The notes beneath the pieces are model-generated. The model had not been told where the DNA came from. It saw only the letters and a program-made list of their open reading frames with translations, and did no database searches. DNA of 64,000 nucleotides, taken from assembly GCA_964532285.1 (NCBI GenBank), contig CAZHHB010000001.1, positions 895 through 64,894 on the forward strand. Reading direction: 5' to 3'. The stretch's first letter is position 1; each line of letters begins with the position of its first letter. The position numbers were made by a program, and so were the translations under genes. The stretch is from an uncultured Candidatus Saccharibacteria bacterium (GTDB lineage: Bacteria > Patescibacteriota > Minisyncoccia > Phycocordibacterales > PALSA-1337). Below, piece after piece: positions 1 through 62,570 of the stretch.

Positions 1-632
1 AAAAACTGCCTGCTTACAATAATAGCACTTTACTTAATACTTGTCAAAAGTGGACCTGGTGAGCCAAAGTTGCCTGTCCTGAGTTTCGAAGGAGAACTAA
101 CTATATCCTTGGATTTCTGAGAACTCTCTAGCAATTCTAGGAGTTAGTGAGCATAAAAAGAGGCTGAGTTTTGCTTGATAGACTACCCTGTTGGGGTCAC
201 AAGATGGGTCGAATATAGACAAAAAGCCCCACCGAAGCAGGGCTTCGAGTGGGACTACAAACAAACTAATGACACGAGTTGATGAAGGTGGCAACCCTGA
301 TGACAAACATATCCATCTCATAGATATCCAGTACATCTATGGACTCATCCGTACGGAATATTGCATCCCTGACTAAGGCCATCTGTGACTCAGACAATTC
401 TGCGCTTTCGTTAACTACACGCGCTATCTCGGCAGCAAGTATTAATCCACGCGATGACGTATTCAGGCTGCTTGTGGCACAACACGATTCGATGTTAAGA
501 AATTCTTTCGCATTCATACTTTCTAACTAAAACGTAAATCATTTCTGTTTATTTGTCAAGCTTTGTGGCGCCGCCTTGCAGGCGGCATCCTACAAAAATA
601 TAGTCACTCACTTTGTTCGTTCCTTATTTTTG

Positions 633-992
633 TGGAGATGGGCGGAATCGAACCGCCGTGCAATCAATGTTTGTCGAGCGAATCTACGACGATAGATTTC
701 TTTAAGTTTAGTGATCCCGTTCTAAAGAAAACAAAAAGCGTGATCACGATCTCTAGGTTTCAGATATTAGAGTGAGAAGCTCCAATACCCTACATCCAAG
801 TTATTATGCCAGCTCTATGGTTAGGATCCCCTTAGAGTGACACGCACTTATACAAGTGCGAATGCAAAGTCCTTTTGTCCGAAATACGGAGAAACGGTTG
901 ATTTAGCATTTAGATTTTCCATCAGATTTACGAGTTAATGGTGCTCGCGTCGCACGAACGAAAACGAAAGACTGTCGATGCCCTTCATCCCC
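633..992 (-). ncRNA. ssrA: tmRNA (ssrA), ~360 nt. The 5' end reads GGGGATGAAGGGCATCGACAGTC; the 3' tRNA-like end reads GGCGGTTCGATTCCGCCCATCTCCA, with CCA not encoded.
   Basis: The minus-strand 5' end matches the tmRNA consensus GGGGAUGUAGAGGUUUUGACAG closely. The 3' end has a canonical T-arm GGTTCGATTCC followed by an acceptor strand CATCTCC that pairs with the 5' GGGGATG. It lies 80 nt downstream of smpB on the same strand. A candidate tag frame (GCT-AAA-...-GAC-TTT-GCA-TTC-GCA-CTT-GTA-TAA) would end in DFAFALV. The tag assignment is uncertain. Confidence 0.8.
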
Positions 993-7348: not shown

Positions 7349-7942
7349 CTAACCCAGACCAAGCTTTTTCACAATATCGGTATGGATTTCTTCTATTGAT
7401 CTTTCTCCGTCTATATCATGGAAATCGTAGAATGAATTGCCGCGATAAAAATCAATCGCAGGTGTAACTTCAGTATCAAACCAGTTCAAACGAGCCTCAA
7501 TATCCATCTTATTATCGTCAACCCTTTTTCTTGCGAGCATTCTATCTTCTGACCATTTCCTGGAGACATTCAAGAGGATGATTTGAGGTTTTTCTCTTCT
7601 ATAAAACTCAAAAGATGAGTGTAGAACCTTTGCTTCATGAAGTTTTCTCGGTGTACCGTCTATTATCAAGTGATGTTTTTCATTCATATTTTCCACGAAG
7701 AAATCTGACCACAGATGTACAGTCAAAAACTCTGGCTGCAGACCGCCAGCCTCATATATAACCCTAGATAATTCTTGGGTGTAAGTATTTCCTTTTATAA
7801 ATTCTCTGAATAACTTACCCGTCTCCAAATGTACGACGGGCATATCAGCATTTTTTTCTCTGAGAATCTTCTCCAATAATTGTGCTTGTGTACCCTTACC
7901 ACAGCCAGAACGACCGATGAAGATGAATGTTTGGGGTTGCAT
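7349..7942 (-). CDS. adk: Adenylate kinase (short form)
   Basis: P-loop GRSGCGKGTQAQLL. Classic position after secY. Confidence 0.75.
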   Translation of the reverse strand: MQPQTFIFIGRSGCGKGTQAQLLEKILREKNADMPVVHLETGKLFREFIKGNTYTQELSRVIYEAGGLQPEFLTVHLWSDFFVENMNEKHHLIIDGTPRKLHEAKVLHSSFEFYRREKPQIILLNVSRKWSEDRMLARKRVDDNKMDIEARLNWFDTEVTPAIDFYRGNSFYDFHDIDGERSIEEIHTDIVKKLGLG

Positions 7943-7968
7943 TCAAACATTATAAGGTAGAAAAGTAA

Positions 7969-8083
7969 AAGAAGGAAGGAGTACTTAGTTTTGAGGACAC
8001 TGCGAGCGCGACTGGCGCGAGCACTAGGAATTTTCCAGCAGGAAAATATCCGCGTCCTCAAAACTAAGTACTCCTTCCTTCTT
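7969..8083. repeat. Structured palindromic element E3. Perfect 28-bp inverted repeat (GAAGGAAGGAGTACTTAGTTTTGAGGAC, 7971-7998 / 8054-8081) around a 55-nt GC-rich insert. It ends 5 nt from the secY stop and lies 27 nt upstream of the adk start.
   Basis: Arms are exact reverse complements. Flanking A-runs and T-runs extend the symmetry to about 35 bp. Confidence 0.8.
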
Positions 8084-8085
8084 TT

Positions 8086-9360
8086 TTAGTATTCCCTCAT
8101 CGCCACTTGTGCGTCAACTTTCTTGAGTAGATCCAAAGCCACAGAAACTACGATGAGAAGTGCTGTACCACCTATAGCTAGACTTTGATTGGAGGTAAAT
8201 GCCTGCATTGCCAGAGGAAGCACCGCGATAATACCTAGGAATAAAGCACCCACCAATGTTATACGAGTGACGATATTGCCGATATGAGCTTGCGTATGTT
8301 CACCTGGACGAACACCTGGGATGAAAGCGCCAGAACGCTGGAGATTTTCGGAGATCATCTTTGGATCGAAAGTGATGGCTGTATAGAAATAAGTAAATAT
8401 AACCACCAAGACAAAGTATGCTGTGCCGTATACCCATTGATTATTGAAGAATGTCGTAAAGGATGAAGCTACACTAGCTATGGTTGGATAATTTGTGAGA
8501 TGTGATAGGAAATTGGAAATTATCTGAGGAAATAGAAGAATGGATAGAGCAAAGATTATTGGGATAACACCTGCTTGATTCAAGCGCAAAGGCAGATATG
8601 TCGAAGCTCCTCCGTAGACTTTGTTGCCACGAACTTGCTTGGCATAAGTCACAGGGACAGAACGCTCGGCTTCGGTCACATATACCACGCCCGCGATAAC
8701 TGCTAGAGCTACTACCAAAGCGCCGATGTACAAAGGTATGTTTTCTGGACTGTAACCAGCGATGAGCTGTGTGACTTTCGTAGGGAGACTAGAGACTATA
8801 CCGGCGAAGATGATGAGTGACACCCCATTTCCTATGCCAAATTCTGAGATGAGTTCACCGACCCACATGAGGAGGATTGAACCCGCAGTAACCACAATGA
8901 CTGCCGTTGTAAAATCAAAAGTGGAAAGACTAGGCAAGACATTTTGAGATTGGAGTAGTATCAAAAAACCTATAGCTTGAATCACAGCCAACGGCGCACC
9001 TATCAAACGAGAATATTGCGAGAGCTTCATGCGGCCAGCATCGCCTTCTTCGTGCATCAGATTCTTCCACTTTGGGAACATCATAGTCAAAAGCTGAATG
9101 ATGATGGAGGCTGTGATAAAGGGACCGACACCAAGCATCACGATAGATAGATTGGACAAGCCACCGCCAGAGAAAATATTCAAAAATCCAAAAAATTGAC
9201 TGGAGGAGAGGAGTTTCGCCAAACTTGCAGCATCAACTCCTGGTATAGGGATAGCAGCCAAGAGGCGGAAAACAACTAATGCAAGAACAGTGAAACCAAG
9301 CCTCTTTCTGAGGATTGGATCCCTAAGCGCCAGTTGTATTTTGGCCCACAGATTTTGCAT
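8086..9360 (-). CDS. secY: Preprotein translocase subunit SecY
   Basis: 424 aa, 10 TM helices, SecY signature segments. Confidence 0.92.
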   Translation of the reverse strand: MQNLWAKIQLALRDPILRKRLGFTVLALVVFRLLAAIPIPGVDAASLAKLLSSSQFFGFLNIFSGGGLSNLSIVMLGVGPFITASIIIQLLTMMFPKWKNLMHEEGDAGRMKLSQYSRLIGAPLAVIQAIGFLILLQSQNVLPSLSTFDFTTAVIVVTAGSILLMWVGELISEFGIGNGVSLIIFAGIVSSLPTKVTQLIAGYSPENIPLYIGALVVALAVIAGVVYVTEAERSVPVTYAKQVRGNKVYGGASTYLPLRLNQAGVIPIIFALSILLFPQIISNFLSHLTNYPTIASVASSFTTFFNNQWVYGTAYFVLVVIFTYFYTAITFDPKMISENLQRSGAFIPGVRPGEHTQAHIGNIVTRITLVGALFLGIIAVLPLAMQAFTSNQSLAIGGTALLIVVSVALDLLKKVDAQVAMREY

Positions 9361-57520: not shown

Positions 57521-57781
57521 TTATTCATAAAGCTGACTGTGCGTCCCAAAAGTGATCAAAAGGTAGTTCTGCGCGTCAATTCTTTTATAAACAAGCCTGA
57601 TATCACCTGAAATATTTATACTTCTACAGTCTGCATATTCTCCGTGTAATTCATGGTTATTTAATATAGGCGCAAACTCATCTGACACAAGCAAATTTAA
57701 ACGAGCTACAATTTTATCTTGTAACTTTTTTGGTGATGCCAAAAAACGCTTTCGGAATTCCGATGAACGATAGAGAAACAT
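57521..57781 (-). CDS. Type II toxin, YafQ/RelE family mRNA interferase
   Basis: ...HELHGEYADCRSINISGDIRLVYKRIDAQNYLLITFGTHSQLY matches the YafQ core (HxLxG....R..Hi.pDwlLiYk......l.RtGtHs.Lf). Confidence 0.75.
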   Translation of the reverse strand: MFLYRSSEFRKRFLASPKKLQDKIVARLNLLVSDEFAPILNNHELHGEYADCRSINISGDIRLVYKRIDAQNYLLITFGTHSQLYE

Positions 57782-57793
57782 GACTAAAGGATA

Positions 57794-58075
57794 CTACGAA
57801 CGCATCTCCTTAACAAGATTTTCAACAGAAGTAGACTTCGGTAATTTCCCCTCTTTGTATTCCCTTTCTGCTTCAGCAATAGCTCTCATCAAATGTGGTG
57901 TTGGTTTATGCGAAACAGAGAAACTTACCTCCTTATTACGGACAAATTGCCTTAGGAAACTATTTATAAGTGTCCCCAAAGATATACCGATCTCTTCGGC
58001 AACTTCTTGGGCCGCCTTTTTCAAAGTTTTATCGGTCTTTACTGTTATTAAAGTTTTTGTATTAATTGTCGTCAT
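57794..58075 (-). CDS. Type II antitoxin, DinJ/RelB family (RHH)
   Basis: TVKTDKTLKKAAQEVAEEIGISLGTLINSFLRQF (ribbon-helix-helix). Immediately upstream of the toxin. Confidence 0.7.
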   Translation of the reverse strand: MTTINTKTLITVKTDKTLKKAAQEVAEEIGISLGTLINSFLRQFVRNKEVSFSVSHKPTPHLMRAIAEAEREYKEGKLPKSTSVENLVKEMRS

Positions 58076-58829: not shown

Positions 58830-60026
58830 ATGTTTGACCTAAAAGTAATAAATTCAGTAGTACAACAGTTAGAAGAAGAGCGTGGTATCCCAAGAGAAAA
58901 GACTCTGGAAGCCATCGCCATGTCCCTAGCAACCGCCTACAAGAAAGAGTATGGCAAGAAAGGCCAGATTATCCGTGCTTCATTTGATCAAAACAGTGGA
59001 GCTGTAGAGTTTTGGCAGGTGAAGATCGTCGTAGATCGTGAACAAGTCATCATGGAAGGTGACGAGGAAGCCGAACACGAGGAACTCAAGAATACCAATG
59101 TTGATGACATCAAGATTCGTTTCAATCCAGAACAACACATGCTTATTGAAGATGCTAGGAAGATCAAGCGCGGCGCTGTCGTCGGCGATGAACTAGTATT
59201 CCCTCTTGAGATGAAGGCCGACTTCGGACGCATTGCCGCTCAGACTGCAAAGCAGATCATCATTCAGAAGATCCGTGAAGCCGAGAAGGTCTCAGTCATG
59301 AGTGAATACGGAGAAAAAGAAGGTCAAATCGTTGCCGGTATCGTAGAGAGAGTAGAGAGGGGTATTGTATACATAGATATGGGTAGAGCTATCGGTGTGA
59401 TCCCTTACGAAGAGCAAATCCCTAGTGAACGCTGGAAGACGGGTGATCGTATCCGTGCTTACTTATTTGCTGTAGAAGAGACTCCTAAAGGCATCGTCTT
59501 GAAACTTTCACGCGCTCATCCGAAATTCCTAGCCAAACTCTTTGAGACAGAAACTCCGGAGATTGCTTCTGGAACTGTAGAGATAAAAGCTATTTCTCGA
59601 GAAGCTGGTTCTCGTTCCAAGGTAGCTGTCATCTCTCATGATCCACATATTGATCCTATAGGTTCTATGGTTGGACAGAGAGGAGTGCGTGTCTCTACTG
59701 TTACAAGCGAGCTTTCTGGTGAGAAAATAGATATCGTAGAATGGAATGAAGATCCTGCTCTGTTTATTGAAGAGTCTCTGTCACCTGCCGAGGTTGTTTC
59801 TCTAGAACTAGATGAGAGAGAGCATCGTGCCATTGTGACTGTGACAGAAGATGAACAATCTCTAGCTATCGGTAAGGGTGGTCAAAATGTCCGTCTTGCT
59901 GCAAAACTAACTGGTTGGAAGATAGATATCAAATCTGCGAATACTAATGCAGAATCAGAAGAGGATGAGGTTGAAAGTGAAGTGAAGGAATCTGCTGAAG
60001 TTGTAGAAACTAAAGATAGTAAGTAA
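58830..60026 (+). CDS. nusA: Transcription termination/antitermination factor NusA
   Basis: N-terminal domain, S1, two KH domains, acidic C-terminus. Confidence 0.9.
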   Translation: MFDLKVINSVVQQLEEERGIPREKTLEAIAMSLATAYKKEYGKKGQIIRASFDQNSGAVEFWQVKIVVDREQVIMEGDEEAEHEELKNTNVDDIKIRFNPEQHMLIEDARKIKRGAVVGDELVFPLEMKADFGRIAAQTAKQIIIQKIREAEKVSVMSEYGEKEGQIVAGIVERVERGIVYIDMGRAIGVIPYEEQIPSERWKTGDRIRAYLFAVEETPKGIVLKLSRAHPKFLAKLFETETPEIASGTVEIKAISREAGSRSKVAVISHDPHIDPIGSMVGQRGVRVSTVTSELSGEKIDIVEWNEDPALFIEESLSPAEVVSLELDEREHRAIVTVTEDEQSLAIGKGGQNVRLAAKLTGWKIDIKSANTNAESEEDEVESEVKESAEVVETKDSK

Positions 60027-60027
60027 A

Positions 60028-60154
60028 GCAAGGCAAAATACTTCCTTCTCGGGACACGGGGAAAACTCTGCAGAGTTTTCCCCTAGTTTCGCTCCTCGGC
60101 TTGCTAGCCTCGGAGCTGCAAATGTCCCGCGAAAGAAGTATTTTGCCTTGCTTC
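60028..60154. repeat. Structured palindromic element E4. Outer ~30-bp inverted repeat (AGCAAGGCAAAATACTTCCTTCTCGGGACA / TGTCCCGCGAAAGAAGTATTTTGCCTTGCT) enclosing a perfect 26-nt palindrome GGGGAAAACTCTGCAGAGTTTTCCCC and a second small hairpin. It fills the gap between the convergent nusA and C39-like stop codons.
   Basis: Arms match at 28 of 30 positions. The central 26-mer is its own reverse complement. Confidence 0.8.
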
Positions 60155-60156
60155 AA

Positions 60157-60771
60157 TTATCGTACTTTCAAAAGTGTCATGGAGAAATCAGGCTTGTTGG
60201 TGCTATATGTAGCATCGGCGAGCCTTTTTTCTGTATAAGAAGTAATTCCACGGTCAGGGTCAATTAGAGTCACCCCGCTCTCATTGAAACCAGCAACAAC
60301 GACCATATGAGCTCCGTATCCCCCACCACCGTATAGGATGTTTTGATTTACAGAAAGTAAAATAAAATATTTTCTCTTTGAGAAAAACTTGATGTCTTCT
60401 ACACCATAACGCCTATTTTGCAGAATAATATTCTTATTATGAACCAATAGTTTTGCATCTTTTTGTTCACTTACCAAATCTGAAAACTGATCCTGCACTT
60501 TGAAGGTATCAGCATCCCAGATCTCCTCCAAATATTTCTTGCCACCTTTCGCAAACGCTCTGTAATCCAGATTCTCTACATGGATAATATCAAATCTATT
60601 TGATAGCCATAGTAAATATCTACTCATCCAAGTAAACATCCCATCTTTGTGTCTAGCAATTTTATCCAACTTTCCAATAGACAATACAGGCATGCCGAAA
60701 TAGTGAAGCAGTGTCTGCAAACATGCCTGTACGCAATGTGTATCAGAATTTTTGAAATGTTTGTATTCCAT
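60157..60771 (-). CDS. Stand-alone papain-like cysteine peptidase, C39-like (Peptidase_C39_2-type)
   Basis: Catalytic Cys context HCVQACLQT. Catalytic His in the GAHMVVVAGF context. 204 aa, with no ABC transporter fused. Confidence 0.5.
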   Translation of the reverse strand: MEYKHFKNSDTHCVQACLQTLLHYFGMPVLSIGKLDKIARHKDGMFTWMSRYLLWLSNRFDIIHVENLDYRAFAKGGKKYLEEIWDADTFKVQDQFSDLVSEQKDAKLLVHNKNIILQNRRYGVEDIKFFSKRKYFILLSVNQNILYGGGGYGAHMVVVAGFNESGVTLIDPDRGITSYTEKRLADATYSTNKPDFSMTLLKVR

Positions 60772-60780
60772 ATTTGTATA

Positions 60781-60810
60781 AAAAATGGGGCGACACCGAA
60801 GTGCCGCCCC
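60781..60810 (-). terminator. Strong intrinsic terminator (GGGGCGGCAC-UUCG-GUGUCGCCCC followed by AUUUUU) between mini-ORF 1 and the C39-like gene
   Basis: 10-bp GC-rich stem, UUCG tetraloop, and a U-run on the minus strand. Confidence 0.7.
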
Positions 60811-60855
60811 GATGTTGGATGACTCGACTCAGACCAAGGGCCTGTGGCTGGACAA

Positions 60856-60948
60856 TCAGCGACCACCGTTACCGCCCTGGCCGTGGGTACCGCTCGAGCT
60901 TGTATTGGTCGAGCCACCGTTACCAGAATTGAGAATGATTGAGATCAT
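60856..60948 (-). CDS. Mini-ORF 1 (30 aa): MISIILNSGNGGSTNTSSSGTHGQGGNGGR. Candidate Gly/Ser/Asn-rich precursor peptide.
   Basis: SD GGAGAA 5 nt upstream of the ATG. Not in the ORF track because it is under 60 aa. GC-rich, Gly codons. The first ~35 nt are paralogous to mini-ORF 2. Confidence 0.4.
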   Translation of the reverse strand: MISIILNSGNGGSTNTSSSGTHGQGGNGGR

Positions 60949-61020
60949 AATTCTCCTTTCATATTATGGTTTCGTTGTTTTGCTATGCCGCCTTTGATTA
61001 AAGCGGAAAGTCTGTGCCCC

Positions 61021-61131
61021 CTAGTTGGGCATGCGATCATCGAAATCATCAATCCCCTCACGCTTTATGGGCGTATCTCGAGGATCGACGATGATTCGAG
61101 GCATCGGATCTCTGACAACTATTGAAGTCAT
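61021..61131 (-). CDS. Mini-ORF 2 (36 aa): MTSIVVRDPMPRIIVDPRDTPIKREGIDDFDDRMPN. Paralogous in its 5' end to mini-ORF 1.
   Basis: Upstream GGGATAATTATGACTTCAAT compares with GGAGAATTATGATCTCAAT for mini-ORF 1. DNA-level similarity continues with frame differences. Confidence 0.35.
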   Translation of the reverse strand: MTSIVVRDPMPRIIVDPRDTPIKREGIDDFDDRMPN

Positions 61132-61193
61132 AATTATCCCTTTTGGTTAAGGTTAATGTGCTGTGCTAATTTTGATTAGCGCTATCTATGAGT

Positions 61194-61221
61194 AGCATAG
61201 CAAAGGAGAAAAGTTTGTCAA
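61194..61221 (-). promoter_or_regulatory. Candidate promoter TTGACA-N16-TATGCT for the mini-ORF and C39 unit
   Basis: Minus-strand -35 TTGACA (complement of 61216-61221) and -10 TATGCT (complement of 61194-61199). Confidence 0.3.
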
Positions 61222-61246
61222 TAGGGGTAGTTGATAATTAATGACC

Positions 61247-61275
61247 AATAAAAAAGGCCGAGATCTCTCTCGACC
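61247..61275 (-). terminator. Intrinsic terminator after the M16 peptidase gene (GGUCGAGA-GAGA-UCUCGGCC followed by UUUUUUAUU)
   Basis: 8-bp stem plus a U-run on the minus strand, 20 nt after the M16 stop. Confidence 0.55.
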
Positions 61276-61295
61276 AGTTAATGGTACCGACGATA

Positions 61296-62570
61296 TTAAC
61301 ACACAGACTTGGACCCCGTTCCTTTAAACACCACCGCATGTGCTTTGTCTGGTGATAGTTGATTCAACTGTGCTTCCACCTGATCACGCTCTATTTCATT
61401 CATGATTTGTTCGTAATGAGAATCATTCACAATACGATTAGCACCCAAATATCGCTGTAAGGCTATGTCTCTGAAAGCTTCAGGATCAATCGGCCTCATA
61501 TTGAATAAATGTTTGGTTCCTTGTTTTATTTCTTCCAACCTTGCACTGCTCCTTACCTGCGGATCATTGACGACATCACGGAACGCAGTCAGAACTGCAT
61601 CAATATTTTCCATTTTCGTCTCAGCGCAAAAACCGAAGTAATTGCGGGCAGGAGTGCCTTTACCAACACAAAATGTCTTGTACACAAGCTTGCGTTCTTC
61701 TCGAGCTATCCTATACAGCGGCGAACTTAGTCCGCCGAACTGGAAGAGTGCCGAAAAGATATCAGTAGTGAGAAAGGTATTCACGGTGTCTTTCTTCCGA
61801 AGCGGAAACAACATGAACACTAGTGATGAAACGAACTCAGTTTCAACAGTGGTAGTTTTTCCAGACTTCCACTCTGGAAGAAAACCACGGTTAGCAGGTA
61901 CTCTGCGTTCTGATAATCCGTTAGCTGGCAAAACTTCTGCCAGATTCGCCAGCTTTTGCTGTATTTCATCGATTGGAATATTACCGACGATGATAAGCAT
62001 GGCGCGTGAACGATCATAGCCGGCTTTATAGGCATGGCACAAAGTTGAGACGTCCATGGTATCGAGCGTCTCTTCTGTCCCGAGGACGCGATGTCCGAAT
62101 GGGTGTCCTCCATAGAGAATTTCTGATAGCTTAGTAAAGGCCGAGTAATCGGCCTTCCCCAAACTTCCAGCTATTTCTTGACGGATGATTTCCCTCTCAG
62201 CCGCCACATCATCTTCCCTGATGAGGGGCCTTCCGAACAAATCGGTAATCACCGACAGTGCTTCATCCCACACTTCCAAGGGCACACTACTCTCATATAC
62301 GGTGTATTGCATACCAGTGCGCGCATTGATATGCCCAGCATATTTAGTAGCCCATCCTTTGGTCGCGGCATAACCACCGGGATACTTGGCAGTACCACGG
62401 AACGGCACATGCTCGAACCAGTGATACAATCCAGGCTTACCAACTGATTCATCATCAGCTGCCCCCGTAAAGATTACCCAGGACATAGCGACTGACTTAA
62501 CCATTTCAGGCATCCGCTGATAAAGTATCGGGATACCAAAAGGTCCAGTGAACTGTTGTATTTCTATCAT
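61296..62570 (-). CDS. M16 family zinc metallopeptidase (inverzincin HxxEH)
   Basis: HWFEHVPFRG near the N-terminus (HxxEH), with a downstream Glu-containing region. 424 aa. Confidence 0.7.
   Translation of the reverse strand: MIEIQQFTGPFGIPILYQRMPEMVKSVAMSWVIFTGAADDESVGKPGLYHWFEHVPFRGTAKYPGGYAATKGWATKYAGHINARTGMQYTVYESSVPLEVWDEALSVITDLFGRPLIREDDVAAEREIIRQEIAGSLGKADYSAFTKLSEILYGGHPFGHRVLGTEETLDTMDVSTLCHAYKAGYDRSRAMLIIVGNIPIDEIQQKLANLAEVLPANGLSERRVPANRGFLPEWKSGKTTTVETEFVSSLVFMLFPLRKKDTVNTFLTTDIFSALFQFGGLSSPLYRIAREERKLVYKTFCVGKGTPARNYFGFCAETKMENIDAVLTAFRDVVNDPQVRSSARLEEIKQGTKHLFNMRPIDPEAFRDIALQRYLGANRIVNDSHYEQIMNEIERDQVEAQLNQLSPDKAHAVVFKGTGSKSVC

Follow-up and report, generated by a model that had tools for sequence, protein, structure and literature searches.

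Maturation of small peptides that depends on M16 metallopeptidases is known from the pyrroloquinoline quinone pathway, in the case of PqqF/G, and from subtilosin, in the case of AlbE/AlbF. More generally, both C39 and M16 enzymes are well documented as proteases that remove leaders: PttP1/PttP2 are M16 leader peptidases of class III lanthipeptides, while C39 domains make use of hydrophobic leader residues at positions -4, -7 and -12 (PMC10885120). Here we describe a locus on the minus strand of a 64,000-nucleotide stretch (hereafter the window) of an uncultured Candidatus Saccharibacteria genome (assembly GCA_964532285.1, contig CAZHHB010000001.1) in which two very small open reading frames (ORFs), A and B, lie between the genes of an M16 peptidase and a C39-like peptidase. 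The order along the strand is M16 gene, terminator, promoter, ORF A, ORF B, terminator and C39-like gene; an initial annotation had recognized each of these elements, along with the Shine-Dalgarno (SD) sequences of both mini-ORFs, and all of them were found where it had placed them. On balance we lean towards the view that the locus represents a Patescibacteria module for maturing small peptides, in which peptide B is cut by the C39-like peptidase at a GNGG motif and the M16 enzyme acts as an accessory.

Peptide B (30 residues, MISIILNSGNGGSTNTSSSGTHGQGGNGGR; 60856..60948, minus strand) follows an SD sequence, GGAGAA, at 60951-60956 and carries an invariant GNGG and an H-G. We retrieved 153 peptidase homologs (P0002-P0154), fetched related loci for comparison (L001-L040) and ran six-frame scans over all of the fetched loci, which revealed B-type peptides adjoining C39-like homologs in about 16 distinct loci (window/L001/L002, L003/7/10, L004, L006, L011, L012, L014, L015, L016, L018, L022, L023/24, L032-36, L038, L039 and L040). 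Two Logan contigs match the window and encode an identical C39-like protein. The peptidases of the other loci share no more than 35-59% identity with that of the window. Strong SD sequences lie upstream of the peptides in most loci. Over a 16-codon core from nine loci, the pooled synonymous difference of B is saturated (pS 0.62) versus a nonsynonymous difference (pN) of 0.09, and its serine codons switch between TCN and AGY. For peptide A (36 residues, MTSIVVRDPMPRIIVDPRDTPIKREGIDDFDDRMPN; 61021..61131, minus strand, with the SD GGGATAA just upstream), the window and L004 copies give a pS of 0.59 and a pN of 0.13. Judged by these substitution patterns, purifying selection acts on both ORF A and ORF B, which are real coding sequences, and the mini-ORFs of the initial annotation are thus conserved as coding. 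Its proposal that A and B are paralogous over their first ~35 nucleotides held up poorly, the likeness being weak and confined to 8/8 nucleotides at the start codon (BLASTN E 0.16) and a shared M-[TI]-S-I-[VI]-[VL]; no out-of-frame DNA homology between them, which it had also described, was detected by BLASTN. Protein databases hold two B entries, both labelled 'hypothetical protein', and a protein database search for A returned the window and L004 copies only. Neither A nor B, nor the B' and C-type peptides described below, had a match in Pfam or NCBIfam at E<=10. The antisense ORF of 70 residues that a gene caller had picked in L002 is not conserved.

The aligned B peptides fall into two types. 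Type 1 reads x(5-16)-[ST]GNGG-S-N-N-T-S-S-S-G-T-H-G...G-N-G-x-[KRH], and type 2 reads M-S-G-N-G-G-N-H-N-G-G-G...G-rich...K, with GNGG from residue 3 and glycine runs of up to 6. The G-N-G-G is invariant in all of them, type 2 included. The residue order after it in type 1 (S-N-N-T-S-S-S-G-T-H-G) is conserved, while the N-terminus varies in both sequence and length. Further, the flavor of the peptide follows that of the enzyme: SGNGGSNNT..SSGTHG peptides are found with HCVQAC enzymes, and MSGNGGNHNGGG.. peptides with HCFQAC enzymes. B usually lies upstream of the peptidase gene with a terminator in between, but once, in L040, the order is reversed to C39-like gene, B and terminator, with the type-2 peptide MSGNGGNHNGGGLGGGGGGKDGKGK placed 67 nucleotides downstream of the peptidase gene and equipped with its own GGAGG and terminator. 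The link between B and the peptidase is therefore independent of B being an upstream leader. A linkage that survives changes in gene order, together with a peptide flavor that tracks the peptidase clade, points to a partnership at the protein level.

The C39-like gene (60157..60771, minus strand) encodes a stand-alone protein of 204 residues that we assign to the C39-clan cysteine peptidases, with the candidate triad Cys13, His155 and Asp171. With 23.3 bits, the Pfam model Peptidase_C39 (PF03412) barely passes its cut-off of 22, its match covering only residues 143-185 in the C-terminal part, and PF13529 remains below its cut-off. A profile search against the PDB found PCAT1 at E 0.004, and the hidden Markov model (HMM) alignment places Cys13 (HCVQAC) on the CGAAC of PCAT1 and His155...Asp171-Pro on its HFVV...DP. 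H155, D171 and P172 are invariant, and none of the full-length proteins in the set of 153 homologs has lost the Cys. An AlphaFold2 (AF2) model made from a five-sequence alignment (pLDDT 93.8, pTM 0.90) predicts a papain-like fold that is closest to C39 domains. By model and alignment, then, this predicted peptidase has the C39 fold and keeps the Cys/His/Asp triad, in line with its earlier naming as C39-like. Some 72 residues, forming four helices (~residues 66-125), have no aligned counterpart in C39 domains, and this helical insert holds the most conserved motif of the family, ENLDYxxFxxxGxxYL (from E66). An exhaustive HMM search collected ~600 clusters at 50% identity, nearly all of them stand-alone proteins of ~200-220 residues. 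The window protein has no signal peptide and no fused transporter, and the GenBank name of its homolog MEK7609740.1 is 'hypothetical protein'.

Variations on the peptidase gene were also observed. Two paralogous C39-like genes stand in tandem after a type-2 B in L015 (4974-6325) and L018 (2653-4010), and in L013 (2454-3812) a family member is followed by a C39 protein of the canonical kind, which matches PF13529 and PF03412 (E 6e-12 and 2e-11). The C39-like gene of L008 (3826-5759), from a Paceibacterota metagenome-assembled genome (MAG), keeps the upstream UUCG hairpin but lacks both a B ORF and a canonical start codon, and comes after a methyltransferase and a 368-residue CxxCxxC protein with no Pfam match. 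In L026 (6053-8089) the peptidase is followed by a 678-residue ORF that resembles a prolyl oligopeptidase; the window has no such ORF.

The peptide genes are organized as an operon with a promoter of its own. This is a sigma-70-type, TG-extended promoter, TTGACA-N16-(TG)TATGCT (61194..61221, minus strand; 10/12 matches), and it aligns likewise in L004, L016, L032, L027 and L038. Ahead of it, the M16 transcription unit ends in an intrinsic terminator whose 8-bp stem, GGTCGAGA/TCTCGGCC, precedes a T-run (61246..61275, stem 61275-61256, minus strand). Between B and the C39-like ATG lies a strong terminator (60778..60810, hairpin 60810-60787, minus strand) with a 10-bp stem including 8 GC pairs, a UUCG loop and U6. 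Promoter and terminator scans over the whole region gave no enrichment versus shuffles; the promoter and both hairpins nevertheless recur at matching places in homologous loci. In every type-1 locus a GC-rich hairpin of unrelated sequence with a U-tract stands 3' of the B ORF, and the peptidase ATG comes 4-15 nucleotides past the hairpin (~60 nucleotides in L004) without an SD. With a terminator ahead of an SD-less start codon, peptide output should far exceed enzyme output, and the proposal of the initial annotation that precursor levels are held above those of the enzyme fits this conserved order of peptide, terminator and peptidase.

A conserved 13-nucleotide element, ATAGATAGCGCTA (61177..61189, minus strand), unique in the window, marks the predicted transcript start. 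It is identical or one nucleotide off in L004, L016, L032, L038 and L027 and three off in L039, so that it and the promoter are kept across loci with saturated synonymous sites. The element directly follows the -10 box, contains the palindrome TAGCGCTA and is able to pair with a downstream UAG(G)CGC into a 5'-terminal stem-loop; it may be an operator or such a stem-loop. A gene for a 73-residue XRE-type helix-turn-helix protein lies upstream of the module in L016 and L027-34, and TrmB regulators accompany type-2 loci; neither an XRE nor a TrmB regulator was found in the window. Between ORFs A and B a small hairpin, CCGCUUUAAUCAAAGGCGG (60988..61006, minus strand), appears in both the minimum free energy (MFE) and the centroid structures, and L004, L016, L032 and L038 have a different hairpin in the corresponding place. 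A further mRNA hairpin, GGCUCGA-N9-UCGAGC, falls inside ORF B (60895-60918), where it is formed by G-S...S-S codons that have counterparts in L004, L012, L016, L027 and L032. Because its stem codons (GGC, TCG, TCG, AGC) are nearly invariant while other synonymous sites are saturated, we suggest that they are under RNA-level constraint in addition to coding constraint.

This architecture could be taken to mean that ORFs A and B act in cis as regulatory leader peptides (upstream ORFs) at which stalling on Gly/Ser/Asn codons controls terminator read-through and with it peptidase expression. Nearly all loci do place a short SD-equipped ORF dominated by few kinds of amino acid (up to six Gly in a row in type 2), followed by a terminator, directly before the gene, and the transcript has more structure than its shuffles (z -3.9). 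We regard this explanation as very improbable. It is largely refuted by L040, where B and the terminator after it come downstream of the peptidase gene, and it is also at odds with L027-31, where B, a C-type peptide and the terminator persist before an unrelated gene. Folding argues against it as well, since no antiterminator helix pairing with either terminator arm appeared in the MFE structures of 14 loci, and what is conserved in B is the order of its non-Gly residues (SNNTSSSGTHG) and not composition alone.

Peptide A, with the pattern DPMP...IDDFDDR(M/I)PN-COOH, has homologs in L004 and L003/L007, and an A-type gene directly follows the M16 gene in both loci whose upstream context is known (the window and L003). 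In other loci A's place upstream of B is taken by a third unannotated family, the C-type (MPEG[ST]CDGDGQG..VV.RILIPPEPPFPQPLPL.., with the form MPEG[ST]CDGDGQG...IPPEPPFP...), in which an acidic head with a Cys is joined to a tail rich in proline. C-type peptides lie at 5646-5729 in L003, 4675-4791 in L016, 5835-5951 in L032, 97-180 in L038 and 5844-5921 in L027. The L016 and L032 copies compare at a pS of 0.41 and a pN of 0.06, and those of L027 and L038 diverge after ~11 residues, possibly through a frameshift. In L003 two peptide pairs surround one C39-M16 gene pair, with C+B upstream and A+B' downstream. B' (MITVVECGDGEGECDHCGGACDGGDTSGPSGGD; L003 8204-8305, also L007 8240-8335) is an acidic, Cys-rich, B-like peptide that follows the A-type peptide downstream of M16. 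The peptides are conserved as paired units, A going with B in the window and L004, C with B in L003, L016, L032 and L038, and A with B' in L003.

The M16 gene (61296..62570, minus strand), a transcription unit of its own and the sole M16 gene within the window, encodes a zinc metallopeptidase of 424 residues with the motif HWFEH (HxxEH) and, downstream, EREIIRQEI. It matches PF00675 at 55.7 bits (E 6.8e-15) and PF05193 (M16_C) at 46.8 bits (E 3.9e-12), has no signal peptide and reaches none of the NCBIfam equivalogs for M16 (PqqF 47.6 vs 320, YfmH 50.9 vs 250). The association of M16 with the module that had been pointed out earlier recurs, an M16 gene neighboring the C39-like gene in five different layouts. 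It lies upstream on the same strand in the window, downstream and convergent in L005 (where the protein shares 43% identity with the M16 of the window), directly downstream in L003/7/10 and again in L025, and 1.3 kb upstream in L018. Another M16 gene lies 3.3 kb off in L040.

In the working model that we favor, the dedicated promoter would give rise to a short structured mRNA encoding two SD-equipped peptides, which in the window are A (DPMP...IDDFDDRMPN) and B (..SGNGG with an S/N/T/G/H-rich tail). The strong terminator would stop most transcripts, leaving the peptidase gene to be reached by read-through alone, and this SD-less gene past the hairpin would yield a cytoplasmic stand-alone cysteine peptidase of the C39 clan. 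We infer that this enzyme has peptide B as its cognate substrate and that cleavage most likely occurs at the invariant G-N-G-G, with Gly-Gly at P2-P1 as in double-glycine processing, which would release a hydrophilic Gly/Ser/Asn/Thr/His peptide of ~18 residues (predicted product STNTSSSGTHGQGGNGGR). M16 would play an accessory part, processing or clearing peptides, with peptide A as a possible target. Given an invariant Gly-Gly and an enzyme with the fold of double-glycine peptidases, a substrate cut at GNGG is the simplest reading.

Several observations weigh against this model. The N-terminal part of B comprises 0-16 residues and lacks hydrophobic residues at -4/-7/-12, with Gly at -4, so that the GG is indeed placed atypically for a leader, as the initial annotation had remarked; in type 2 GNGG is reached already at residue 3. 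About eight C39-like loci have no B (L005, L008, L009, L013, L017/19, L021, L025 and L026), and in L027-31 B is kept while the peptidase is replaced by an unrelated gene of 112 residues. The M16 proteins of all other loci except L005 are 22-28% identical to that of the window and are thus probably not one orthologous partner; these identities suggest that M16 genes were repeatedly recruited and do not form one co-evolving partner. No exporter, immunity gene or modification enzyme was found in the window, and no exporter or immunity gene next to the peptides in the longer related loci either. For this reason neither 'RiPP' (a peptide made by the ribosome and altered by post-translational modification) nor 'bacteriocin' is demonstrated: of the RiPP- or bacteriocin-like locus first proposed, the conserved peptides, the C39 fold and triad and the link to M16 stand, whereas the modification enzyme, exporter, immunity gene and canonical leader are missing.

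Also to be set against the model are the other structural neighbors of the C39-like protein, PeiR, CtaG, CcbD and phytochelatin synthase, since papain-fold relatives that include transferases and isopeptidases make hydrolysis less than certain. The protein could instead act like BtrH, CtaG or phytochelatin synthase, as a transferase or ligase for which B would serve as acyl donor or acceptor, for example in a cyclization or conjugation through a Gly-Gly acyl-enzyme. Near both of its ends B has GG or G-x-G motifs, and RimK/MvdD-like ATP-grasp ligases lie 2-3 kb off in L015 and L023. The best structural and sequence matches are nonetheless hydrolytic double-glycine peptidase domains, B varies in its C-terminal motif (GNGGR, GNGNK, GNGK, GNGGH, GNGGHGN), and ATP-grasp genes are absent from the window and most loci, which together make a transferase improbable in our view. 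The ATP-grasp neighbors are found at 7862-8821 and 8888-10510 in L015, with an S9 peptidase next to the ligase, and at 1997-2917 in L023; the window contains none of these genes.

Another possibility is that the peptides are themselves the active agents, as a two-peptide toxin, bacteriocin or signal made of A+B or C+B. The C39-like and M16 enzymes would then not be maturases but would serve self-protection or turnover inside the producer, or B would be a pseudo-substrate that regulates the peptidase. Such a role would suit the conservation of peptide pairs as units, the occurrence of B and C without an adjacent peptidase in L027-31 and the fact that the conserved portion is the putative core and not the leader. 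No exporter is fused to the peptidase, both peptidases are without signal peptides, and small XRE or TrmB regulators stand beside the operon in relatives, as would also be expected on this account. We consider it unlikely, though it deserves to be taken seriously: the invariant GNGG and the closest fold match, to double-glycine domains, indicate site-specific cleavage and not bulk degradation, an enzyme set for low expression relative to the peptides is odd for an immunity factor, and the peptides are very hydrophilic, unlike membrane-active two-peptide bacteriocins. Maturation of B by the C39-like peptidase therefore remains our preferred reading.

The relatives of the module come from MAGs labelled 'Patescibacteria group' and 'Candidatus Paceibacterota' and from metagenomes, some of them European Nucleotide Archive (ENA) contigs labelled Hainich (Hain_H51/H43). 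In the window the module sits between a gene for an H+-pyrophosphatase (H+-PPase, hppA) and a convergent nusA, and its block is GC-rich, as previously described (~0.51 at 60700-60999 vs 0.34-0.44 in the flanks). The same hppA-nusA slot is common to L016, L027-L036 and L039, with contents that differ among loci. The gene neighbors in the window are the H+-PPase, M16, C39-like and nusA genes, a phosphatase-like gene and, two genes past nusA, a pair encoding a RelB-like antitoxin (93 residues) and a YafQ-like toxin (86 residues; 57521-58075, minus strand). This RelB/YafQ pair, the variable slot content of relatives and the Bro-N genes in L032/L033 suggest that the region is plastic. A phage origin was rejected, as no relative was found among viral contigs.

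The gap that separates the nusA stop (60026) from the stop of the C39-like gene (60157) is spanned by a 37-nucleotide inverted repeat (arms 60020-60056 and 60123-60159, 89% complementary, 66 nucleotides apart), which overlaps the 3' ends of both genes and encloses a perfect 13-bp palindrome (60058-60083); this repeat was not seen at the corresponding place in L004. When Rfam 15 covariance models were run against the 520-nucleotide intergenic region, nothing reached the gathering threshold and the matches at E<=1 were at chance level only. A known RNA gene in this gap was thus ruled out by Rfam (gathering threshold, E<=1) and ARAGORN, with no transfer RNA or transfer-messenger RNA (tmRNA) there. 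The only tmRNA gene of the window lies elsewhere (630-992, minus strand; Rfam 108.6 bits) and specifies the tag peptide AKSTVSPYFGQKDFAFALV.

Patescibacteria, the candidate phyla radiation (CPR), are ultra-small episymbionts that are mostly uncultured, and we are aware of almost no molecules by which they interact with their hosts or with one another. Against this background we tentatively suggest, as an idea that could well prove wrong, that GNGG peptides and free-standing, insert-bearing C39-clan enzymes make up an unrecognized, transporter-independent ribosomal-peptide system that is seemingly specific to the CPR and employs a minimal S-G-N-G-G tag in place of a helical leader. Its product, possibly formed with the involvement of M16 and A or C, would be a small conserved hydrophilic peptide, perhaps an intracellular effector or an episymbiont-host signal. 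If this is true, a C39 enzyme that works without an ATP-binding cassette (ABC) transporter and recognizes a GNGG tag of five residues would broaden what is known of how double-glycine peptidases choose their substrates, and it might find use as a minimal-tag protease. The two mini-genes, which are conserved, look strongly expressed and are linked to peptidases of their own, moreover offer a synthesizable candidate (an 18-30 residue peptide plus a 204-residue enzyme), and the peptide families A, B and C-type are each without a Pfam or NCBIfam model. Literature searches on the peptide motifs (SGNGG, SSGTHG etc.) and on stand-alone C39 peptidases returned irrelevant papers only.

Among described systems, small unannotated precursor genes with peptidases nearby are known in Patescibacteria from the CPR graspetide loci (Makarova et al. 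2022, PMC8939145), and in L015 and L023 the module likewise has its ATP-grasp ligases within 2-3 kb. Unlike those loci, however, the window and most relatives have no ATP-grasp gene, such genes being confined to L015 and L023, and B lacks the Thr/Ser-Asp/Glu cross-link signature. A link to graspetides was accordingly rejected, and the module is not among the loci of PMC8939145. With leader-peptide attenuators such as thrL and hisL the module shares a short translated ORF dominated by few kinds of amino acid and followed by a terminator before a gene, but B can lie downstream (L040), persists when the gene is replaced (L027) and keeps its residue order, with no antiterminator predicted. As in RiPP clusters, the precursor peptide genes are conserved as coding sequences (pS/pN of B, A and C-type). 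Conservation is reversed, however, with a variable N-terminus and a conserved 'core', and the window has no modification enzyme, a methyltransferase and a CxxCxxC protein occurring only in the B-less L008. The module also differs from class II bacteriocin loci, in that neither an exporter nor an immunity gene stands beside its peptides. The M16-dependent pathways of PttP1/PttP2, PqqF/G and AlbE/AlbF are matched by an HxxEH M16 adjoining small precursor-like peptide genes, but here the M16 gene is single, with no heteromeric pair, the window encodes no radical SAM, LanKC or other modifying enzyme, and the M16 genes, 22-28% identical across loci, were seemingly recruited independently.

The closest likeness is to the C39 domains of the PCAT/AMS type (PCAT1/CtA, ComA/ComC, LahT, CvaB/colicin V). 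The module enzyme resembles them in the Cys of its N-terminal helix and its His...Asp-Pro, and the locus in having, next to the enzyme gene, a substrate-like peptide gene with an invariant Gly-Gly and a leaky terminator before the enzyme gene. In contrast to them, it is a free-standing, cytoplasmic protein of 204 residues (~200-220 in relatives) without transmembrane or ATPase domains, bears a ~70-residue helical insert (ENLDYxxFxxxGxxYL) and scores at the Pfam borderline through its C-terminal part only. Nor does it fit the stand-alone C39-like families of Pfam (Peptidase_C39_2 PF13529, DUF3335 PF11814, Guanylate_cyc_2 PF09778; 3ERV), all of whose cut-offs it misses, and its family differs from these in having an insert of its own and a cognate GNGG peptide gene, unique as far as we found. 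B, for its part, recalls double-glycine leaders in the Gly-Gly (G-N-G-G) that closes its N-terminal part, where cleavage would occur. Those leaders have ~15-25 residues and the -4/-7/-12 pattern, whereas B has an extension of 0-16 residues, places S-G-N before the GG, begins MSGNGG in type 2 and keeps the segment after the GG conserved instead of hypervariable. Undescribed in Pfam, NCBIfam, Rfam or the searchable literature, the module is a variant of the double-glycine peptide/C39 theme.

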